Source: a virus (taxonomy: Duplodnaviria > Caudoviricetes). Taken from it: a stretch of DNA of 64,000 nucleotides. This document shows positions 46,507 to 64,000 of the stretch, piece after piece (the stretch's first letter is position 1; each line of letters begins with the position of its first letter). The notes beneath the pieces were generated by a model. That model was not told the origin of the DNA and made no database searches. It was given only the letters and a program-made list of their open reading frames with translations. The position numbers and the translations under genes were made by a program. Location of the stretch: IMG/VR virus record IMGVR_UViG_2811995017_000005, positions 3,317 through 67,316 of that record. One strand, given 5' to 3'.

Positions 46507-47034
46507 TTACGCTGTTAATTGGGATTGGCAGTGTGCCCTGAACCGTTGGATGAACTTACGGTGAGACTCGGGATTTCCTCCAAATCGCTTCGCCAAAAGC
46601 GATGAAATTTCCGAATCGTTTGTGCATCCTCGGTTCCAAATTGCCAATATCGTTTTTTTTCGTGGGTCGTCCTGCGCCAACAGGGCGATCTTTTCTTTTA
46701 ATAAAACCTCGCCTACGACGTTCGCCGAAACGTCTTCAGGTTCCCATACGGTTTCTTCTTCGTTTATCGCCTCAATCGATAGTTCTTTTCGAGATCGTCG
46801 ATTCCTAAGAACTCTTGCCTTGACTTGTCGAATTGTCTTTTGAATGAGTGCTTTCTTCTCTCTCCCATTCTCTAGGTACCTCTCTAACGCGTATCCTATA
46901 GCTTGGTAACACTCTTGTTCAAATGATGTGAAGTCGGGTATCAAGTGTGCGATCCGATTCGATTCTCTAAGCACGTAGGGAATCGCCCCACTTTCAGCTG
47001 CTATCCTCATTCTATTAATTTTTTGATTTTCCAA
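46507..47034 (-). CDS. Phage sigma-factor-like protein (group 4 size)
   Basis: Region-2-like FEQECYQAIGYALERY, LSIE linker, C-terminal HTH-like region. Confidence 0.6.
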   Translation of the reverse strand: MENQKINRMRIAAESGAIPYVLRESNRIAHLIPDFTSFEQECYQAIGYALERYLENGREKKALIQKTIRQVKARVLRNRRSRKELSIEAINEEETVWEPEDVSANVVGEVLLKEKIALLAQDDPRKKTILAIWNRGCTNDSEISSLLAKRFGGNPESHRKFIQRFRAHCQSQLTA

Positions 47035-47151
47035 ATTTCCAACCCCTTTCGCCCTACACTTATATAATGGGTAGGTAACACATAATATTGGGACACCATT
47101 TCTGAAATTTTTTCTTGTCTTTATTTTTTTTGCTAATTATTTAGCTTTTTG

Positions 47152-47341
47152 TTGACATAAATTAAAGAATATTGTAGAGTATAGACATATCTAAATAAAC
47201 CCTACAAAAACAGCCTGAAACGTTGGGGGACGTAGCTTAAGGCTTTAATTTGTAGTGTCTAAGAAGCTGAATAAATAGCTTATGAACACAGTTTATTAAA
47301 GATTTCTTTAAATGTCAACTTGTTTTTTAAAGATTTCTTTA
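47152..47341. promoter_or_regulatory. Genetic switch: convergent sigma-A promoters and two operators
   Basis: Rightward TTGACA-17-TAGAGT (47152-47180); leftward TTGACA-17-TAAACT (47318-47290); TAAAGATTTCTTTA at 47297 and 47328. Confidence 0.75.
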
Positions 47342-47374
47342 GTTTGTTTTCATGAGCCATTAAGGATGGTTGAT

Positions 47375-47704
47375 ATGATTACGTTTGAAAGAGTTAAAAA
47401 ACTTTGTAAAGATCGAGGCATAAGCCTCTCAAGACTAGAAGAAAATGTAGGATTCGGAAAAAACTCTATTTATTCATGGAAGCAGAATAACCCTTCGAGT
47501 GACAAACTCAAAAAAGTAGCCGACTACTTCAATGTATCTGTTGACTACCTACTTGGCCGTACCGATGATCCGAAAATACAAGGCCAATACGACATAGATA
47601 CTATAGCCGCTCATCACGATGGTGAAGATTGGACAGAAGAAGAGTTAAGGGAGATCGAACGTTTCAAAGAGTTTGTCCGCTTAAAAAGAAAACAACAGGA
47701 GTAG
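47375..47704 (+). CDS. ImmR/CI-like XRE repressor
   Basis: ISLSRLEENVGF...KVADYFNVSVDYLLGR; IAAHHDGE. Confidence 0.9.
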   Translation: MITFERVKKLCKDRGISLSRLEENVGFGKNSIYSWKQNNPSSDKLKKVADYFNVSVDYLLGRTDDPKIQGQYDIDTIAAHHDGEDWTEEELREIERFKEFVRLKRKQQE

Positions 47705-47709
47705 TTGAG

Positions 47710-48177
47710 ATGTACGAAACATTACTTTCGGAGGCTACTCACCTTGGTATAGACACCTATGAAAAACAAATGCCTCATAGACTCAAGGGATTGTACTCAA
47801 AAAATGTTATTTTGATTAATAAAAACATGGAAACCTCTTATGAAAAAACTTGTATACTTGCCGAAGAACTTGGTCATTATTATACATCGAGTGGGGATAT
47901 AGTTGATCAAGATACAATTGAAAAGCGAAGACAAGAAAAAATTGCGAGAACGTGGGCTTACGAAAAGCTAGTACCTTTGTCCAAAATTGTTCAAGCCCAC
48001 AAAGAAGCTATAAAAAATAGGTATGAGCTTGCTCAGTACCTTGAGATTACAGAAGAATTTTTAGATGACGCCATTAAGCGCTATAAAGAAAAATACGGTG
48101 CTACTGTTAACTATGGTGGATACACCATTTGTTTTGAACCACTTGGTGTAATAGAGTGGTTTGACAATTCTTTTTAA
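47710..48177 (+). CDS. ImmA/IrrE-family metallopeptidase antirepressor
   Basis: LKGLY...CILAEELGHY...QEKIARTWA. Confidence 0.9.
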   Translation: MYETLLSEATHLGIDTYEKQMPHRLKGLYSKNVILINKNMETSYEKTCILAEELGHYYTSSGDIVDQDTIEKRRQEKIARTWAYEKLVPLSKIVQAHKEAIKNRYELAQYLEITEEFLDDAIKRYKEKYGATVNYGGYTICFEPLGVIEWFDNSF

Positions 48178-48271
48178 CCTAAAAATCGAACATACATTCT
48201 TTTTAAGGAGGTATGGACGACCTGTACGAATGGATCGTCGAGGAATAACCGGTAGTCGGTCGTTGACGGGA

Positions 48272-49285
48272 TTAAGTGTCGCCCGTCAACGAAAAACTTA
48301 CCCGTTTAGGTATCTTCAGACGCCAGCTCTTAACGTCCTCCGCACGCTCATACACCGCCTTCAACTCCGCTCTCCCCTTCGCAATCAATAGTTCGTTCGC
48401 ATCCTTTCCCTCCGTAATATATCCGTGTGCCAGTCCGACTTTCCCGTATAAATAACGCTCGACCTCCGCCCGCAACTTCTCGCCGGCCTTATCGTTATCC
48501 GTCACGATGGTTACGTGTTCGATCGGAGACTGAACGATAATGTCCGCTTTCCGTTGGTTGAACGAAGACCCTCCGGTCCCGATCGCCGGCACTCCCGCTG
48601 TCATCCACGATTGCGCATCGATCTCCGCTTCGCATAAGACAACGCGTGTCAGCCGCCGGTCATACACGACGTTCATTCCGTAAACGAGATCCCGTATCGG
48701 CCAGCCGCCTTTGACGTACCAGAACGCCTTACCCCACGTCGATCGGTACTTTACGTTAGCGAGCCGCCCGTTCGGCAACCGCCAGGGTAGCGCAACCGCA
48801 CTACCAGCCATACCGACGCCCATTAGACGCTGGACAGCCGGCATGATTCCGCGCTTGTTTAAATAATCGTTAGGCCCCGCAACCACGCCGCCGAGAATCG
48901 ATTCGCTTAGAGGTTCGCGATTCTTTGCGATCTTCAGCTTCGGCGGCCTGAGCGTTAATTTACTGCCTTCCGATTCCGGCGCATACGCATCGATTAGGTA
49001 TTCGACCGTCTCTTCCTCGGTTTCTTCGCGCAAGAAGGCGAGCAGCTTAACGAAGCCACCCCGCGCATACTCTGCGTCATAATAGCCGCTATCGCCCCAA
49101 TAGCCGGCCTTCGCGGTCGCCGTGTCTTCGAGGTATACGTAAAAGCTCGGCGTTCGGTCATATCGGAAAGGACTTGCGGCCAGCAAGCGCTCATCCGTCC
49201 AGGTCGGCCGCGTCCAATCGAACTGTTCGAGCTCATAACGTATGTCGACGTCGACCGGGCGCCCGTTTAACGTCAATGTTGGCAC
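48272..49285 (-). CDS. DNA primase (TOPRIM)
   Basis: SPFRYDRTPSF, LCEAEIDA, TDNDKAG, KDANE. Confidence 0.9.
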   Translation of the reverse strand: MPTLTLNGRPVDVDIRYELEQFDWTRPTWTDERLLAASPFRYDRTPSFYVYLEDTATAKAGYWGDSGYYDAEYARGGFVKLLAFLREETEEETVEYLIDAYAPESEGSKLTLRPPKLKIAKNREPLSESILGGVVAGPNDYLNKRGIMPAVQRLMGVGMAGSAVALPWRLPNGRLANVKYRSTWGKAFWYVKGGWPIRDLVYGMNVVYDRRLTRVVLCEAEIDAQSWMTAGVPAIGTGGSSFNQRKADIIVQSPIEHVTIVTDNDKAGEKLRAEVERYLYGKVGLAHGYITEGKDANELLIAKGRAELKAVYERAEDVKSWRLKIPKRVSFSLTGDT

Positions 49286-49419: not shown

Positions 49420-50778
49420 TTAGAAATCGAACTGATCCGCTGAACCTTCGGACCCCCCTAGCTGCTTAACAACGCCGAACTGCGGCAGATAAACGATCTC
49501 AGCGCTCTTTCCTTCGCCACCATCCCGGCCTTTGTTCAGACCGATCAGGCCTCGACCTTCCTCCGCGTTCGTATCCACCGCAATCAATAGCGCAGCATCT
49601 TCGAGTAGGGCCTTCGTTTTCTTGACGTCCTTACGCTGCGGCAACTTTAATTCGGAATCAGCGTCTTTCCCTTCGCCTTCTTCCGCTTGCGTCAACGCAA
49701 AGACAGTCGTTTTTGTTTGGCCGGCCAGACGTCGGAGTTTCTTCGAAGTCTCGGCCGCGTCTCCACCCGCTGTCTTTGACGTGTTCTTTTCGTAATCGAG
49801 ATAGTAAAAAGGGTCGAGTAGCACGACGTCAGCTTTCGTTTCGAGGATATCCGCCTTCAGGTCGCGCAGTTTCCGAGAGTCGAAGTCCTCATCGTCTACC
49901 GCGCGGACAATGATGTTACCCGGAATCAATTCGTTCATCTTATCGAGGAACTCCATAAATCCGGACTCAAATTCATCGTCCAGTTTTCCTTGGCGAACAT
50001 CGCGCGAGTTAAATCCGGCCTCAATATCTACGCCGTCAAGAGTAGCCTTTGCGACACCAACGCTCGCTGAAATGGAAACGTAGAGCCGGACAAGAACCTC
50101 GTACCATCCCATCTCCATCGACCAGATTAGTACGTTCGCCCCCTGCATCGCGCAATTAATCGCTTCCTCCAACGCTATGGCCGATTTTCCCCGACCGGAC
50201 TTCCCATAAATAACGTATACGTTCGACGAAACATAGCCGCCCATCGCCCGGTTTATGAAGTCGAATTTACTGCGCCAGATCCGGAATGACTCGCCAGCCT
50301 TGCGGTTTTCGTATTCGGCTTTAAATTTATCGATATCTCGTTTTATATCGATACCAACCGTATCACGAACGTTTGTTCTTATTCTAAACCTTTCGGCCTG
50401 CTCCGTCAACCACGAAAAAAATTCTTCCGGGTTATCTTGCGCGCTCTCCCACCGTTTCATAAATTCGGATTCTCCGCCTTCCTTACCGTTAACAATTTCG
50501 GAAAAGGCACGCAAAGCCGCTTGATTACGCAGTTTCTCCGCAAGGTACTCGTAGCTGGCCTCGATATTAAAATCCGGCTCGAAGTCCGGCACCTCATGTG
50601 CAAGCATCTCGGCAGTCGGCGCCTGACCTCCGTGTTTCTCCGCGTATTCCGTGATATATCGTAGTGCCTTGCGTTCGCCTTCCGTCGGCAGATCCTCGGC
50701 GGTAATATTAAAGCGCAACAACGCGTTCGGATCATTCTGTTCGATCACTTTCGATAGCATTAAAACACCGTAGTTCAT
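49420..50778 (-). CDS. DnaB-like replicative helicase
   Basis: GKSGRGKS, WSMEM, LLDPFY, LTQ, KGRDG. Confidence 0.92.
   Translation of the reverse strand: MNYGVLMLSKVIEQNDPNALLRFNITAEDLPTEGERKALRYITEYAEKHGGQAPTAEMLAHEVPDFEPDFNIEASYEYLAEKLRNQAALRAFSEIVNGKEGGESEFMKRWESAQDNPEEFFSWLTEQAERFRIRTNVRDTVGIDIKRDIDKFKAEYENRKAGESFRIWRSKFDFINRAMGGYVSSNVYVIYGKSGRGKSAIALEEAINCAMQGANVLIWSMEMGWYEVLVRLYVSISASVGVAKATLDGVDIEAGFNSRDVRQGKLDDEFESGFMEFLDKMNELIPGNIIVRAVDDEDFDSRKLRDLKADILETKADVVLLDPFYYLDYEKNTSKTAGGDAAETSKKLRRLAGQTKTTVFALTQAEEGEGKDADSELKLPQRKDVKKTKALLEDAALLIAVDTNAEEGRGLIGLNKGRDGGEGKSAEIVYLPQFGVVKQLGGSEGSADQFDF
50366..50409 (-). promoter_or_regulatory. Intragenic sigma-A promoter with LexA (Cheo) box over +1
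   Basis: TTGACG(50409-04)-17-TAGAAT(50386-81)-A-AGAACAAACGTTCG. Confidence 0.75.
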
Positions 50779-56039: not shown

Positions 56040-56251
56040 ACTTTCGCAATCCCTTCCGTTTATTAATAAGACCTAGCAATCGTTCGCTTTCGCTCACTCT
56101 TGCAGATGTTATTAATCGCGATACATCTTTAATAAGAATATCCGCGCGAATGTATATGAGCGCTATTATTTATCTAGTTATTAATGGCTCTAGTTAAAAG
56201 ATGGTTCTTGTTAGTGTGCTGTCTAGCCATATATGGCTCAGCCGTGTGCGG

Positions 56252-58036: not shown

Positions 58037-58254
58037 TCGAATACCTCCTTCACTCATACAACCCCATAGGTAACGCTATTTTTGCAACATCAATTCCGAA
58101 AATTTTTTCGCCTTCACTTATAAAATGGGTAGATAGCATTCAATTTTGGGACATCAATATCGAAAATTTTCCTTTGCTCAATAATAGATGTGCATATAAT
58201 TCCGGGTCGACACCGTTTTTAGACAAAAAAAAATAACCCGGCCGCAGGGCCGAG

Positions 58255-59313
58255 TTATCTCCGTCGTGTTTTCCTTTTTTTATTCGAATTTTCTTTTATC
58301 TGAAGCAATGGAGAGTGTTTGCTATGCTCTTCAGTTAATGCTTTTTTAGATAAGTGCGTATATCGCATTACCATCCTTAAATCCTTATGTCCGAGTATCA
58401 TCTGTAAATGACGAATATCTCCCCCATCTTCCAGAAACATTGTCGCCCCTGTATGTCGTATCAAATGTGGATGAACACGTTTCTTTATTCCAGCTCTTTC
58501 TGCATAGGTATTTAAACGCTGTCTAAAATTATTAGTAGTCATCTTCTCTCCGTAATTTGCCAAAAATACATAGTCACTATCGAAATCCTCATTCTCCCTT
58601 ATTAGTTCACGCAGCAATCGAAGTGTGTCATCCTCCAACGGAACGAACCTTCCCTTTCGATTTTTTACGTCTTTCCCTTCAAGGACTAGCATTTTCGATC
58701 CAAAATCTATATTCTGCTCCTTAATCGACAGCACTTCGCCGACCCTCATCATCGAATCAATTAGACATGTGACTGCGACATAATCTCGAAACTCGACGTA
58801 CGATCGTTGGTCCATCGTTTTTAAAAGAGAACGCATTTCATCAGGCGTTAAGATGTTCACAGGGTTTTCCGGTGCATTTATTAAAGAAATGTCTTGAAAA
58901 GGGTTTTCATCCGTATACCCCTCTTTAACCGCGAATCTAAAGAAGGTTCGAACAGTCTTTATATAATCGTTCACAGACCTAGCCGAAAGCCCCTTCGTTT
59001 TGTGTTTGTCCAATTTGAATTTGTGACCGTCAAACTTAACCTTTTCGGTCCGCAGCCAAGAAACGAACCCGCGCGCAAAGTCAACGTCAATATGACGAAT
59101 GTCTGCGTCCAATCCGATTGTTCCAGCGTATAAAGTGAGATACTCACATGCCCGCTGATAACGATCGATCGTTTCTTGTACGACATCCTCTGCGCGTTTG
59201 GCATCGTAAAGTCTTTCGAAAATGCATTCGAGATCATACGTTCCTTTCCGCAAAGTCTTGACGGTAGACCGTCCGGATTTGACGCGTTTTCCTTTTCGAT
59301 TTTCCGAGTGCAT
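58255..59313 (-). CDS. int: Prophage tyrosine integrase
   Basis: MRVGE, HPHLIRHT, LGHKD...RYTH; adjacent to tRNA. Confidence 0.93.
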   Translation of the reverse strand: MHSENRKGKRVKSGRSTVKTLRKGTYDLECIFERLYDAKRAEDVVQETIDRYQRACEYLTLYAGTIGLDADIRHIDVDFARGFVSWLRTEKVKFDGHKFKLDKHKTKGLSARSVNDYIKTVRTFFRFAVKEGYTDENPFQDISLINAPENPVNILTPDEMRSLLKTMDQRSYVEFRDYVAVTCLIDSMMRVGEVLSIKEQNIDFGSKMLVLEGKDVKNRKGRFVPLEDDTLRLLRELIRENEDFDSDYVFLANYGEKMTTNNFRQRLNTYAERAGIKKRVHPHLIRHTGATMFLEDGGDIRHLQMILGHKDLRMVMRYTHLSKKALTEEHSKHSPLLQIKENSNKKRKTRRR

Positions 59314-59454
59314 TAAAAAATCGCCTCCCATTTCGCTTGGAAGACGATTGATAAACGGTGCGCTGCGCTGTTGAGATCGGAAGCGCTACGCTGTTTAAGT
59401 CATCGGATAAGTCAACGTTTAGTCATCGTTGATATACCGGGATTTTACGTAAGA

Positions 59455-62632: not shown

Positions 62633-64000
62633 TCATTTTATTTTTTGATTAAATATTATTTTATCGTCAACAATATAATTTGATATATTACTCTCAAACT
62701 CATGAATCTCTAGCCAAGCATTTTTTACATTTAACCCCGTTTGATTAAAAGCATCAGGATATTTTTTTGCTTGGTCTGCATTAGGTCTGTAGTGACCTGA
62801 TTCATTACTAATTCTTCTAATCTGACCTTGACCATTTATTTTCAATTTCCCTGCAGCCTGCACATCTTTACCATTGGCTAAATAAGAATGACCACGACCG
62901 ATATGCAGGTTTCCATCCATATCAATAACAAAATCAACCTCATTTATCCCATTAATATTTTTGATTCTACCATTCTCAATCGTAAAATCAAATCTTTTAC
63001 CGAGCTGTTGATCATCTGGAAAGTGGTTTTTTATAGCTTGTACTGATTTAGTCCCAATTGTTGCCTTACCGTCATTGTGTATATTTTTCCCAACACCCTT
63101 ACCAGTCTCAATCCGCTGAATCGACTCCTGTATCTTCGATTTCGAAGCTTGATGAGCGTCATTCACATGTCCGTAGAAATCGGTGCCTTTTCGGGCGAGG
63201 GTGCCGCCTTGCACTTCCGTTCCCCTGGCGATGTCGCTCAAGGCGTCTGCGCTTTTGGCGAACTGTTTTTTGATGGCGAAGCCTGCGTCATTCAGCTTGT
63301 CCTGGGCTTTCAGCCTGCTGACGCGCATGCGGTTGGACCAGAGGGTCTTGCTGTCTTTTAACGATTGTACCACATGTTCCGTTCTGCTTGATAATTTGCC
63401 GATGGTCGCTACGCCTTTAAACGATTGGGTCGCCACGGCTGCTCCCGGAAGTATGTCGAGTGCCCCGAACGCGCCTCTTTCAAATCGTTCTCCTGTATTT
63501 AACTCGCGCCCCGTCATCCAGTCTTTCCCTGTGGCTGCACTGGAGATTTGGGCTGTTCCGTATGCACCTGCTACAACGAGTCCCACGGGTGCACAAAAGA
63601 TGGTGAGCACGACTACACCGCCGCCGATGATGAGATCACGCCACAATTCCTGATTTTTTTGAACGTCGCTGACCGATTCGTACTCAAAGCCGCGGGCTGA
63701 CACGATCGCCTTCGAATAGTCTTCATAGTTCAATTCGATGTCGGGATTTTGGTCTTTAAACGCTTTATATTCTTCGTTCAGCACATGATCAAACGCTGCC
63801 GAGTCTTTGAAAATGTCATTTACGGTGATTTCCGCTTTGTCTTCCTGGACAGCCGTCTTGTTCATGCCGTAGCCGACATAAGTTGTTTCTTTGGAGCCGA
63901 TGCGGTTTTTGGTCTTGTAGTTGTGGAGTGACAGGCCTTCCATTTTATCCGCGAAAGCGTCGAGCTTTTTGGCAAAAGGCGCATCAATATGGTCTTCCAC
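62633..64000 (-). CDS. LXG-type T7SS polymorphic toxin (partial) with pre-toxin TG domain
   Basis: TGKDWMTGREL...ER PT-TG; toxin tip GHSYL...AAG...SNESGHYRP. Confidence 0.85.
   Translation of the reverse strand: MEDHIDAPFAKKLDAFADKMEGLSLHNYKTKNRIGSKETTYVGYGMNKTAVQEDKAEITVNDIFKDSAAFDHVLNEEYKAFKDQNPDIELNYEDYSKAIVSARGFEYESVSDVQKNQELWRDLIIGGGVVVLTIFCAPVGLVVAGAYGTAQISSAATGKDWMTGRELNTGERFERGAFGALDILPGAAVATQSFKGVATIGKLSSRTEHVVQSLKDSKTLWSNRMRVSRLKAQDKLNDAGFAIKKQFAKSADALSDIARGTEVQGGTLARKGTDFYGHVNDAHQASKSKIQESIQRIETGKGVGKNIHNDGKATIGTKSVQAIKNHFPDDQQLGKRFDFTIENGRIKNINGINEVDFVIDMDGNLHIGRGHSYLANGKDVQAAGKLKINGQGQIRRISNESGHYRPNADQAKKYPDAFNQTGLNVKNAWLEIHEFESNISNYIVDDKIIFNQKIK

Follow-up and report, generated by a model that had tools for sequence, protein, structure and literature searches.

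How do Bacillus temperate phages with short non-cleavable repressors, or with arbitrium, sense DNA damage? For many arbitrium phages this is stated as an open question in the available text of a preprint (bioRxiv 10.1101/2025.11.23.689978). A promoter-like element with a LexA-type box, buried in a replicative helicase gene, offers a concrete candidate answer. Here we ask whether this element is a genuine LexA-repressed promoter and what it would do to the lysogeny genes lying further along the same 64-kb stretch of phage DNA, to which we refer as the window.

The element is situated on the minus strand (Table 1), where an earlier note on this DNA had placed a -35 hexamer, a spacer, a -10 hexamer and a LexA box; all of them are present, and the helicase reading frame bears out its further statement that the box encodes RTNVR. 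In a promoter scan, TTGACG-17-TAGAAT matches SigA-type hexamers at 10 of 12 positions. A single base separates the -10 hexamer from AGAACAAACGTTCG, and the box covers the predicted +1. The core half-sites of AGAACAAACGTTCG are GAAC (50378-50375) and GTTC (50370-50367), such that GAACAAACGTTC at 50378-50367 is a GAAC-N4-GTTC inverted repeat with no mismatch. The LexA box consensus is CGAAC-N4-GTTCG, with which AGAACAAACGTTCG agrees at 13 of 14 positions, position 1 being A where the consensus has C. The flanks of the box, A on its 5' side and G on its 3' side, recur in 47 of 51 distinct variants, and the boxes upstream of host lexA, in genomes that carry relatives of this phage, likewise often start with A. 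Within at most 160 nt upstream of lexA, all five host genomes of relatives hold three to five GAAC-N4-GTTC-like boxes with no or one mismatch, where simple arithmetic predicts about 0.14; this comparison pertains to hosts of relatives, the record of the window naming no host of its own. Helicase codons 124-138, LTEQAERFRIRTNVR, share their frame with the element, which precedes the ATPase domain. The earlier note stresses an antisense aim; this holds only with respect to the convergent immR-immA genes further on, the promoter being sense to both the helicase and the primase gene.

Table 1. Position and strand of the promoter-operator element and of the genes and sites around it
Feature	Position	Strand	Remarks
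-35 hexamer TTGACG	50409-50404	minus	helicase codons 124-125, Leu-Thr
-10 hexamer TAGAAT	50386-50381	minus	17 nt beyond the -35
putative LexA (Cheo-type) operator AGAACAAACGTTCG	50379-50366	minus	over the predicted start (~50373-50375); encodes RTNVR
DnaB-like replicative helicase gene	49420-50778	minus	Pfam DnaB_C E=4e-12, residues 170-402; PHROG 19 E=1.1e-47
DNA primase (Toprim) gene	48272-49285	minus	RBS AAAGGAG, then GTG
11-bp hairpin across primase stop codon	48260-48291	minus	no U tract on either strand
immA-like metalloprotease gene	47629-48177	plus	Pfam Peptidase_M78 E=4.4e-11; PHROG 87 E=9.9e-42
immR-like HTH repressor gene	47312-47704	plus	Pfam HTH_19/HTH_26/HTH_3; PHROG 8 E=2.9e-30
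switch region	47152-47341	both strands	facing promoter-like sites and near-palindrome copies
promoter-like TTGACA-17-TAGAGT	47152-47180	plus	toward immR
promoter-like TTGACA-17-TAAACT	47318-47290	minus	toward the sigma-like gene
sigma-like gene	46507-47034	minus	same strand as the promoter; first gene there past the lysogeny module

Taken by itself, without homologs, the sequence of the window is no more than suggestive. GAAC-N4-GTTC occurs in it once, and 1500 random 64-kb sequences simulated from a first-order Markov model contain about 1.3 on average. One-mismatch LexA-like boxes number 26 versus 30.75 expected, and thus there is no enrichment of other LexA boxes; a second LexA-like box, with one mismatch, is found at 48187-48200, at the primase/immA junction. 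Promoter-like sites between 45500 and 59500 are as frequent as in shuffles (18 versus 17.6), and only three of them reach 10 of 12 matches, namely this site and two in the immR/sigma-like switch region. Of the 1500 simulations, 8 produced a box adjoining a promoter with 10/12 matches or more, and 52 a box adjoining one with 9/12 or more.

It is conservation among homologs at the nucleotide level that takes the element beyond chance. We compared 97 helicase genes, that of the window included, with 45-94% amino acid identity and with hosts including Bacillus, Virgibacillus, Lysinibacillus, Sporosarcina, Paenibacillus, Thalassobacillus and Salibacterium. At the aligned codons, GAAC-N4-GTTC is present in 96 of these genes, the TTG of the -35 in 94, TAnAAT in 93 and all three together in 92. 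The 17-nt distance between the -35 and the -10 is invariant, and the bases between TTG, TAnAAT and the box vary freely. Across 51 distinct 45-mers the -10 reads TAAAAT in 24, TATAAT in 16, TACAAT in 4 and TAGAAT in 3, the residues encoded there changing (K/I/T/R, then I/M/L) while TAnAAT stays. Codon choice is held as well. All 16 Arg residues at codon 134 are encoded by AGA, a codon that accounts for 30 of 525 Arg codons (5.7%) elsewhere in these genes; in the box, ACA is used in 18 of 19 cases (21.5% elsewhere) and GTT for 19 of 19 Val (29.6% elsewhere), and at the -35 of the dereplicated sequences TTG serves 17 of 18 Leu, versus 18.3% of Leu codons elsewhere. Gene-wide, pairs with the same amino acid share their codon in 0.43 of cases. 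In a ranking of 199 columns by synonymous constraint, codons 137, 134, 129, 135 and 124 come first, and the top 12 of 435 eight-codon windows all begin at codons 122-133. The dual coding suggested earlier thereby withstands the check set for it: synonymous positions at RTNVR are not free among homologs, and nowhere else in the gene is the constraint as strong.

The box is also maintained across amino acid substitutions (AGA>GGA, R>G; CGT>CTG, R>L), its middle codon being free (N/S/D/G/T/C/I/R). In phage Mgbh1 it is shifted by 6 nt and falls on other residues, forming a perfect CGAAC-N4-GTTCG behind TTGACA-17-TAAAAT. Related loci totalling 859 kb contain 100 boxes, 94 of them at the helicase site, which makes this the region's one conserved LexA box. 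The box, the -10, the TTG and the RTxVR peptide are all absent from seven helicase homologs at 31-41% identity, which belong to phages without opposite-strand regulator genes after the primase (Enterococcus SAP6 and EH93P1, Listeria P70, Carnobacterium cd3, B. cereus PSYJ-YH, and Paenibacillus Tripp and Heath); the helicase thus has no need of this peptide. These sequence comparisons make it highly probable that the helicase-embedded element is a real LexA-repressed promoter.

What such a promoter would transcribe is indicated by the genes around it. In 18 of 19 dereplicated relatives, helicase and primase are followed by one or more convergent Cro/CI-type HTH genes; promoter and repressor gene converge in these 18, as they do in the window. 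The 3' ends of the primase gene and the convergent HTH gene often overlap in relatives, and a terminator-like hairpin after the primase is absent in 16 of 20 loci, with a good one present in L058 and L008. In the window, the geometry originally proposed, in which the promoter is followed by the 3' part of the helicase gene, the primase gene, no canonical terminator, an antisense passage through immA-immR and then the sigma-like gene, is what we find. The loader and initiator genes lie upstream of the promoter, as does the part of the helicase gene that encodes the N-terminal portion. The primase gene is the first complete ORF past the predicted start, about 1.1 kb away, which implies a long untranslated leader, open to termination or degradation; between helicase and primase (49375-49354) there is a weak hairpin with a T6 run. 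The 11-bp stem across the primase stop codon, mentioned beforehand as a possible limit to read-through, does lack a U tract; its region has an MFE of -43.3 kcal/mol (z = -4.3) and was not called as a terminator.

The opposite-strand module is ImmR/ImmA in the window and in 6 of 97 relatives, and consists of HTH genes plus arbitrium AimR, with aimR divergent from the HTH genes, in 71 of 97. The window has the arrangement that defines the former, an HTH (XRE) repressor gene and then an M78/IrrE-type metalloprotease gene; the immR-like gene probably starts at 47366 or 47375 and the immA-like gene, convergent with the primase gene, near 47710. The promoter had also been thought to explain why the repressor lies ~10 kb from the integrase, an idea that we do not retain, because the post-primase position of the lysogeny genes is conserved whatever the module type. 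The association between the box and a convergent gene is itself confounded by phylogeny, as the presence of the box requires only two or three changes on a quick tree; L009 (Terribacillus) has the convergent HTH gene and has lost the box, and L014 (Paenibacillus) has the box and lacks a convergent HTH gene. Beyond the repressor pair, the near-palindrome TTAAAGATTTCTTTA occurs in two copies (47296-47310 and 47327-47341) on the minus-strand promoter-like site of the switch region. A search of the integrase-proximal early region (48-60 kb) for copies of the putative ImmR operator with up to three mismatches returned none. An 11-mer at 56125 is probably due to chance.

In the model that we favor, host LexA bound to GAAC-N4-GTTC would hold the helicase-embedded promoter shut in a lysogen, and DNA damage, by way of RecA-stimulated LexA self-cleavage, would free it. 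RNA polymerase would then start near 50374 and transcribe the helicase gene's 3' two-thirds, followed by the primase gene, after which, in the absence of a canonical terminator, it would meet the convergent immR-immA genes head-on, cross the switch region and enter the sigma-like gene. As a likely result, the lysis-lysogeny switch would receive an SOS input whatever the type of lysogeny module. This could perceivably have two effects: interference with, or antisense to, transcription of the repressor, and expression of a sigma-like lytic regulator by read-through past the repressor-bound operators. We infer where transcription starts, that LexA binds, that polymerase reads through and how this acts on the switch. 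As a whole, an SOS-fired, LexA-repressed SigA promoter reading through the primase gene into the lysogeny module toward the sigma-like gene seems to us somewhat more probable than its alternatives combined; that this promoter acts in induction by reading into the module is, on its own, an evenly balanced proposition. It is conceivable, albeit tentative, that the element serves an entire lineage of temperate Bacillales phages as an SOS trigger that works with any module. The promoter would then sit among conserved replication genes, ahead of an opposite-strand lysogeny island that can be swapped, and damage would drive polymerase through whichever repressor genes are present.

The product of the sigma-like gene, at the far end of this path, has no Pfam match. 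Its family profile aligns with ~200-aa proteins encoded at the same position in distant relatives (hhalign 82%, E=1e-5), and those proteins weakly match the ECF sigma factors SigE/SigW (E ~0.002). An AF2 model of the protein (pLDDT 74) shows two helical domains, and nearly all of the PDB matches listed by Foldseek are sigma factors, but all have E values of at least 0.17. A comparison with plasmid records, in which SigN of pBS32 was sought, gave no sequence match.

Other readings of the same element have to be weighed. Were it a product of chance, or were the DNA motifs a by-product of the helicase's need for RTNVR and its neighbors, one could understand that the number of boxes in the window is at chance level, that promoter-like sites do not exceed their frequency in shuffles and that the RTxVR peptide is conserved within the clade. 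Protein constraint, however, is able neither to fix synonymous codons, such as the otherwise infrequent AGA at codon 134, nor to preserve bases across amino acid replacements; moreover, the functional homologs at 31-41% identity do without the peptide, and the juxtaposition of box and promoter is as infrequent in simulations as given above. We regard this reading as very improbable. Alternatively, LexA or some other protein could bind the box without gating this promoter. The box might, for example, be a roadblock against read-through from the early operon in lysogens, or belong to a replication or recombination site, the likeness to a promoter being secondary. This would agree with the box being the best conserved part (96/97 versus 93-94/97 for the hexamers), with its persistence in L014, L012, L015 and L092, where the -35 or the -10 is degraded, and with the one-mismatch box at the primase/immA junction, a sensible place for a roadblock. 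Nevertheless, what is conserved is only the TTG, the fixed 17-nt gap, TAnAAT and the box, a pattern that marks a promoter together with its operator and not a lone site, and Mgbh1 retains its -35 and -10 at 17 nt while its box moves by 6 nt. A purpose other than gating the promoter appears to us quite unlikely.

The remaining rival accepts a real LexA-repressed promoter and holds that it only supplies primase, together with co-transcribed genes, during SOS, for example for starting in-situ replication or for transcriptional activation of a nearby origin, with no effect on the repressor. The primase gene indeed has a good RBS as the first complete ORF downstream, the promoter always resides in the replication module some 1 kb before the primase gene and not beside the lysogeny genes, and L014 retains its box with no convergent HTH gene to act upon; furthermore, antisense effects are negligible in phi106/phiW23 according to the available text of the preprint (bioRxiv 10.1101/2025.11.23.689978). 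On the other hand, primase would be of no obvious use in a repressed prophage without the N-terminal part of the helicase, the loader and the initiator, and phages without opposite-strand regulator genes need primase too, yet lack the element. In addition, the primase and HTH genes converge so tightly, often overlapping, that any primase transcript must run into the HTH gene. Primase supply as the sole role of the promoter is, in our view, unlikely, and we continue with the model in which transcription reaches the lysogeny module.

Parts of this model have counterparts in known systems. Coliphage 186 has an antirepressor, p95-tum, under LexA repression, and its face-to-face promoters pR and pL show transcriptional interference. 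It resembles our proposal in that SOS acts via host LexA rather than repressor self-cleavage and that the switch has convergent promoters; it differs in relying on a protein antirepressor and an intergenic promoter, as well as in host phylum and LexA motif. ICEBs1 carries its ImmR/ImmA pair beside int and senses damage via RecA-dependent ImmA activity. Its HTH repressor gene followed by an M78 metalloprotease gene is shared by the window, where the pair is instead 10 kb from int, convergent with the primase gene and targeted by a predicted LexA promoter.

The closest of the cited cases to set beside it are phi106-type phages, in which, in the text available, a LexA site gates aimX and points antisense at the cI-like repressor gene aimC (bioRxiv 10.1101/2021.09.20.460909), and in which, for phi106/phiW23, antisense is described as being of little consequence and a small antirepressor protein as doing the work (bioRxiv 10.1101/2025.11.23.689978). 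As far as these texts describe them, both are Bacillus temperate phages with a family-conserved host LexA operator (here predicted) on a promoter convergent with a repressor gene, providing an SOS input to the switch (here proposed). The phi106 site, again as described there, is intergenic, directly upstream of a 29-aa antirepressor ORF beside the repressor, and acts with AimR; ours is within the helicase gene, ~2.1 kb from the repressor operon with the primase gene in between, and, in contrast to the AimR-coupled phi106 site, is common to ImmR/ImmA and AimR variants. Unlike the antirepressor modules of phi106 and 186, it has no conserved small ORF. In pBS32, LexA represses the SigA promoter PsigN1 of the sigma factor gene sigN (PMC6751061, available text), which parallels the route proposed here from LexA through a sigma factor of a mobile element to a lytic or killing program in Bacillus. 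According to the same text, SigN is weakly ECF-like, as is the sigma-like protein here, and PsigN1 is directly upstream of sigN, whereas our sigma-like gene is 3.3 kb downstream, past an opposite-strand repressor operon. In GIL01, a B. thuringiensis tectivirus, host LexA is the lysogeny repressor at P1 (PMC4551915, PMC6182141, available text), and Firmicute LexA boxes thus lie on a phage promoter controlling replication genes there as well; by these accounts GIL01 has no repressor of its own, needs the corepressor gp7 and has intergenic boxes, whereas the phage studied here has ImmR/ImmA.

We found no description of a helicase-embedded LexA box in open-access papers and bioRxiv. If our model is true, the element would provide the missing DNA-damage input for arbitrium phages without a LexA site at aimX, and would represent a regulatory circuit long maintained by dual coding within an enzyme gene. 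The dual coding is unusually clean for a natural case, in that about 13 promoter/operator nucleotides constrain five codons of a replicative helicase, fixing AGA, which these genes otherwise avoid, and imposing RTxVR. Annotation and SOS-regulon prediction that mask coding regions will overlook sites of this kind.

Several other products of this stretch were considered and set aside. A truncated helicase from an internal start would have to use the ATG at codon 179, which has no SD and is ATC, ATT or GTT in relatives, and the stretch from 50374 to the repressor operon yielded neither a conserved small ORF nor a conserved internal start. Synonymous constraint stops at about codon 140, contrary to what a conserved sRNA or RNA structure past the start site would require, and codons 139-150 are without constraint, contrary to an opposite-strand promoter that would use the palindromic box. 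Between 45500 and 52000 no Rfam family was detected at E<=0.1, and hence no known RNA element. The RNA data comprise Logan contigs from four food/fermentation metatranscriptomes containing several related phages, and are uninformative on starts, ends and strand. One of these contigs, which is no proof of a single transcript, joins immA to the 3' end of the primase gene (47347-48452), and immR-immA are covered by contigs as well (e.g. 47127-48185, with 6 differences).

The hexamers, the 17-nt gap between them and the adjoining LexA-type box (GAAC-N4-GTTC) described in the earlier note were all found on the minus strand of the window, where they form codons 124-138 (LTEQAERFRIRTNVR) of the DnaB-like helicase gene, in frame and N-terminal to the ATPase domain. 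Since the helicase ORF itself lies on the minus strand, the element is in the sense orientation with respect to the gene that harbors it, and its earlier description as antisense holds only towards the convergent immR and immA genes.

Features of the window bearing on the helicase-embedded element (window coordinates)
Feature	Position	Strand	Remarks
-35 TTGACG	50409-50404	minus	
-10 TAGAAT	50386-50381	minus	17 nt after -35
LexA-type box AGAACAAACGTTCG	50379-50366	minus	one base (A) after -10
DnaB-like helicase ORF, 452 aa	49420-50778	minus	Pfam DnaB_C, E=4e-12, residues 170-402; PHROG 19, E=1.1e-47
Integrase	58255-59331		
Early and replication run (DnaC-like loader, helicase, primase)		minus	between integrase and lysogeny genes
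Primase	48272-49285	minus	good RBS
ImmA-like M78 protease gene	47629-48177	plus	convergent with primase
ImmR-like HTH gene	47312-47704	plus	convergent with primase
Promoter-like TTGACA-17-TAAACT	47318-47290	minus	towards sigma-like gene
Promoter-like TTGACA-17-TAGAGT	47152-47180	plus	towards immR
Sigma-like gene, 175 aa	46507-47034	minus	followed by DNA polymerase A and remainder

Conservation was followed through a codon alignment of helicase relatives (45-94% amino-acid identity) from 97 loci, comprising 2 named phages, 15 bacterial genomes and 80 viral contigs, the best-kept 80 of 113; site counts refer to 97 sequences with residues there, the window included and one truncated locus excluded. 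GAAC-N4-GTTC is present at the aligned position in 96/97 helicase genes, TAnAAT in 93, TTG in 94 and all three motifs in 92. Across 51 distinct 45-mers (consensus TTGnnnnannangnnGAangnntTAnAATnAGAACAAncGTTCGt), conservation falls on precisely those letters that matter in a -35, a -10 and a Cheo box, and the letters between them are free. Phage Mgbh1 has two additional codons between -10 and box, with differing residues, and its DNA nevertheless reads TTGACA-17-TAAAAT followed by a perfect CGAACGGGTGTTCG. In 859 kb of relatives' loci, 94 of the 100 boxes fall at the helicase site, and no second conserved LexA box was found near it. Sequences with the box group together in a quick tree, the box label taking two to three changes; the sole relative without a box, from Terribacillus (L009), is nested among them, and its missing box reads as a loss.

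The same picture emerges at the level of codons. Among 20 sequences dereplicated at 85% identity, same-amino-acid pairs share an identical codon at a gene-wide baseline of 0.43, and among 199 informative columns constraint is strongest at codons 137, 134, 129, 135 and 124 (sharing of 1.00 for Val GTT at 137, 0.98 for Arg AGA at 134, 0.89 for Thr ACA at 135 and 0.89 for Leu TTG at 124). When 435 eight-codon windows were ranked, the top 12 all began at codons 122-133; the synonymous constraint ends at about codon 140. Synonymous positions of the box codons, to which the earlier note had pointed as a check, do not vary freely in homologs: AGA encodes Arg at codon 134 in 16/16 cases versus 30/525 Arg codons elsewhere in the helicase genes, with corresponding figures of 19/19 versus 29.6% for GTT and 18/19 versus 21.5% for ACA, and of 17/18 versus 18.3% for TTG in the -35. 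The Arg four codons past 134 is always CGN, and this codon contributes both the last base of GTTC and the G that flanks it. The DNA motif even outlasts amino-acid replacement (Arg to Gly via AGA to GGA, Arg to Leu via CGT to CTG), and the middle codon of the box specifies eight different amino acids among homologs. As a separate observation, codons 142-143, four codons past the box, read GGA ACA or GGA ACG, a GAAC half-site, in many relatives (GGA 13/20, ACN 16/20; GGT ATC in the window).

Could the element have arisen by chance, or from constraint on the protein? Taken alone, the window makes a weak case for more than chance. It contains one GAAC-N4-GTTC in 64 kb versus a mean of 1.3 in simulated sequences, and 18 promoter-like sites between 45500 and 59500 versus 17.6 in shuffles; only three of these 14-kb matches reach 10/12, the element included, the remaining two both lying in the immR/sigma-like intergenic region, and 8/1500 simulated windows gave a box adjoining a promoter of at least 10/12. 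Both explanations are, however, contradicted by the codon-level constraint, by the frozen rare codons and by distant homologs devoid of the peptide, and we hold them to be highly improbable. Box, hexamers and RTxVR peptide are all absent from helicases at 31-41% identity, namely those of Enterococcus SAP6 and EH93P1, Listeria P70, Carnobacterium cd3, B. cereus PSYJ-YH, and Paenibacillus Tripp and Heath; the peptide is therefore not required by the enzyme and is more likely imposed by the DNA element. None of these seven phages, of which we take SAP6, EH93P1, P70 and cd3 to be virulent, carries opposite-strand genes after primase.

Host genomes provide a further control. In the five behind loci L003, L007, L012, L014 and L017, 3-5 boxes with 0-1 mismatch lie within 160 nt upstream of lexA versus about 0.14 expected by arithmetic, and LexA of these hosts therefore uses the GAAC-N4-GTTC motif, which the phage box matches better than do most of their lexA-upstream boxes. 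The record being a single 67.3-kb virus contig, the lexA of the window's own host is not readable from it. We hold the element to be very likely a LexA-repressed SigA promoter.

Downstream of its predicted start (~50374) no conserved in-frame start or small ORF was found, and the first complete ORF is primase, preceded in the helicase-primase gap by a weak hairpin with T6 (49375-49354). The 11-bp stem that the earlier note had named as a possible limit to read-through does exist; it spans the primase stop codon and lacks a U tract on both strands, and no terminator-like site was called on the minus strand from there to the sigma-like gene. Upon SOS induction, RNA polymerase starting there would be expected to traverse primase and enter the repressor operon head-on. 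Repressor transcription could be disturbed in this way, and the sigma-like gene could be reached by read-through across operators occupied by repressor. We give roughly even chances to the proposal that such read-through, by interference or by sigma-like expression, tips the lysis-lysogeny switch.

The promoter might instead only supply primase or activate replication, which we think unlikely, and less probable still is that the LexA site serves some other purpose than gating a promoter, for example as a roadblock. The arrangement beyond primase is a family trait. In 18/19 dereplicated relatives one or two opposite-strand Cro/CI-type HTH genes directly follow primase, often with overlapping 3' ends, and past them lie AimR and/or a sigma-like gene of ~200 aa on the helicase strand; in the Paenibacillus locus L014 primase is directly followed by the sigma-like gene. 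A simple pattern search (n=20) found no terminator-like hairpin after primase in 16, a weak one in 2 and a good one in 2 (L058, L008).

The predicted read-through would cross the switch region between immR and the sigma-like gene. The promoter-like sites of immR and the sigma-like gene face each other, with predicted transcripts overlapping by ~96 nt, and two copies of the near-palindrome TTAAAGATTTCTTTA, 31 nt apart and without a further copy in the early region, lie on the sigma-like promoter as probable ImmR operators. The sigma label is weakly supported: the gene has no Pfam match, and a profile of its family can be aligned (hhalign 82%, E=1e-5) to proteins encoded at the same position in distant relatives, which match ECF sigma factors at E ~0.002. 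In an AF2 model (pLDDT 74) a disordered linker connects two helical domains; the Foldseek PDB matches listed for it are nearly all sigma factors, none at E<=0.001.

Lysogeny modules vary behind the element. AimR lies on the helicase strand in 71/97 loci, opposite-strand ImmR and ImmA occur in 6/97 and ImmR alone in 1/97, and neither AimR nor ImmR/ImmA was found in 19/97; a module-type homology breakpoint lies directly past the primase hairpin. As AimR and ImmR/ImmA loci both carry the element, the LexA promoter is common to phages with different lysogeny modules.

Known systems set beside the element include phage 186, with tum and face-to-face promoters, the ICEBs1 ImmR/ImmA module, and the tectivirus GIL01. 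The nearest studied design is that of phi106-type arbitrium phages, in which aimX is gated by a LexA site and convergent with the repressor (bioRxiv 10.1101/2021.09.20.460909); a later preprint names a 29-aa antirepressor as the effector, gives antisense little weight, and describes many arbitrium phages as lacking a LexA site at aimX, with the damage input there unknown (bioRxiv 10.1101/2025.11.23.689978). In pBS32, the ECF-like sigN is directly preceded by a LexA-repressed SigA promoter (PMC6751061). Unlike in the systems compared, promoter and operator here form part of the codons of an enzyme gene, and a replication gene lies in the ~2 kb that separate them from the repressor; they have no antirepressor ORF, and their conservation is independent of the lysogeny module. 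No description of a helicase-embedded LexA promoter was found in the open-access and bioRxiv literature.

Several minor observations concern the surroundings. In AimR relatives, aimR is divergent from small HTH genes, followed by the sigma-like gene, a layout unlike the 'extended' aimR-aimP-aimX/aimC/aimL order described in bioRxiv 10.1101/2025.11.23.689978. The virus itself appears to be temperate and integrated. Directly 3' of integrase lies a strong terminator-like hairpin (58229-58262, minus; 15 pairs and a T run), and past it, ahead of the early genes, a weak promoter-like site (58210-58181). Beyond the prophage's integrase end, an ORF of bacterial polymorphic-toxin type (domains Pre-toxin TG and Nuc_N) runs off the window (62633-64000, minus), followed by small ORFs without family match; this region is probably host or cargo DNA. 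Directly after immA, an 11-codon mini-ORF, MDDLYEWIVEE (48213-48248, plus), follows a strong AAGGAGG site, and its ATG is the exact homology break between phages with different lysogeny modules; it may be what is left, at the 3' end, of an HTH gene that was replaced, marking the recombination joint of a swappable module. A second LexA-like box, AGAATGTATGTTCG (48187-48200, minus), with one core mismatch (GAAT for GAAC), falls exactly into the 94 nt that separate the stop codons of the convergent genes primase and immA. It resembles the boxes that precede lexA in the hosts; 4 close relatives share its exact sequence, and a fifth has a degraded version. Since the window shows no enrichment of boxes with one mismatch (26 versus 30.75 expected), this one may be a chance match; if real, it could act as a LexA roadblock where primase and immA converge.
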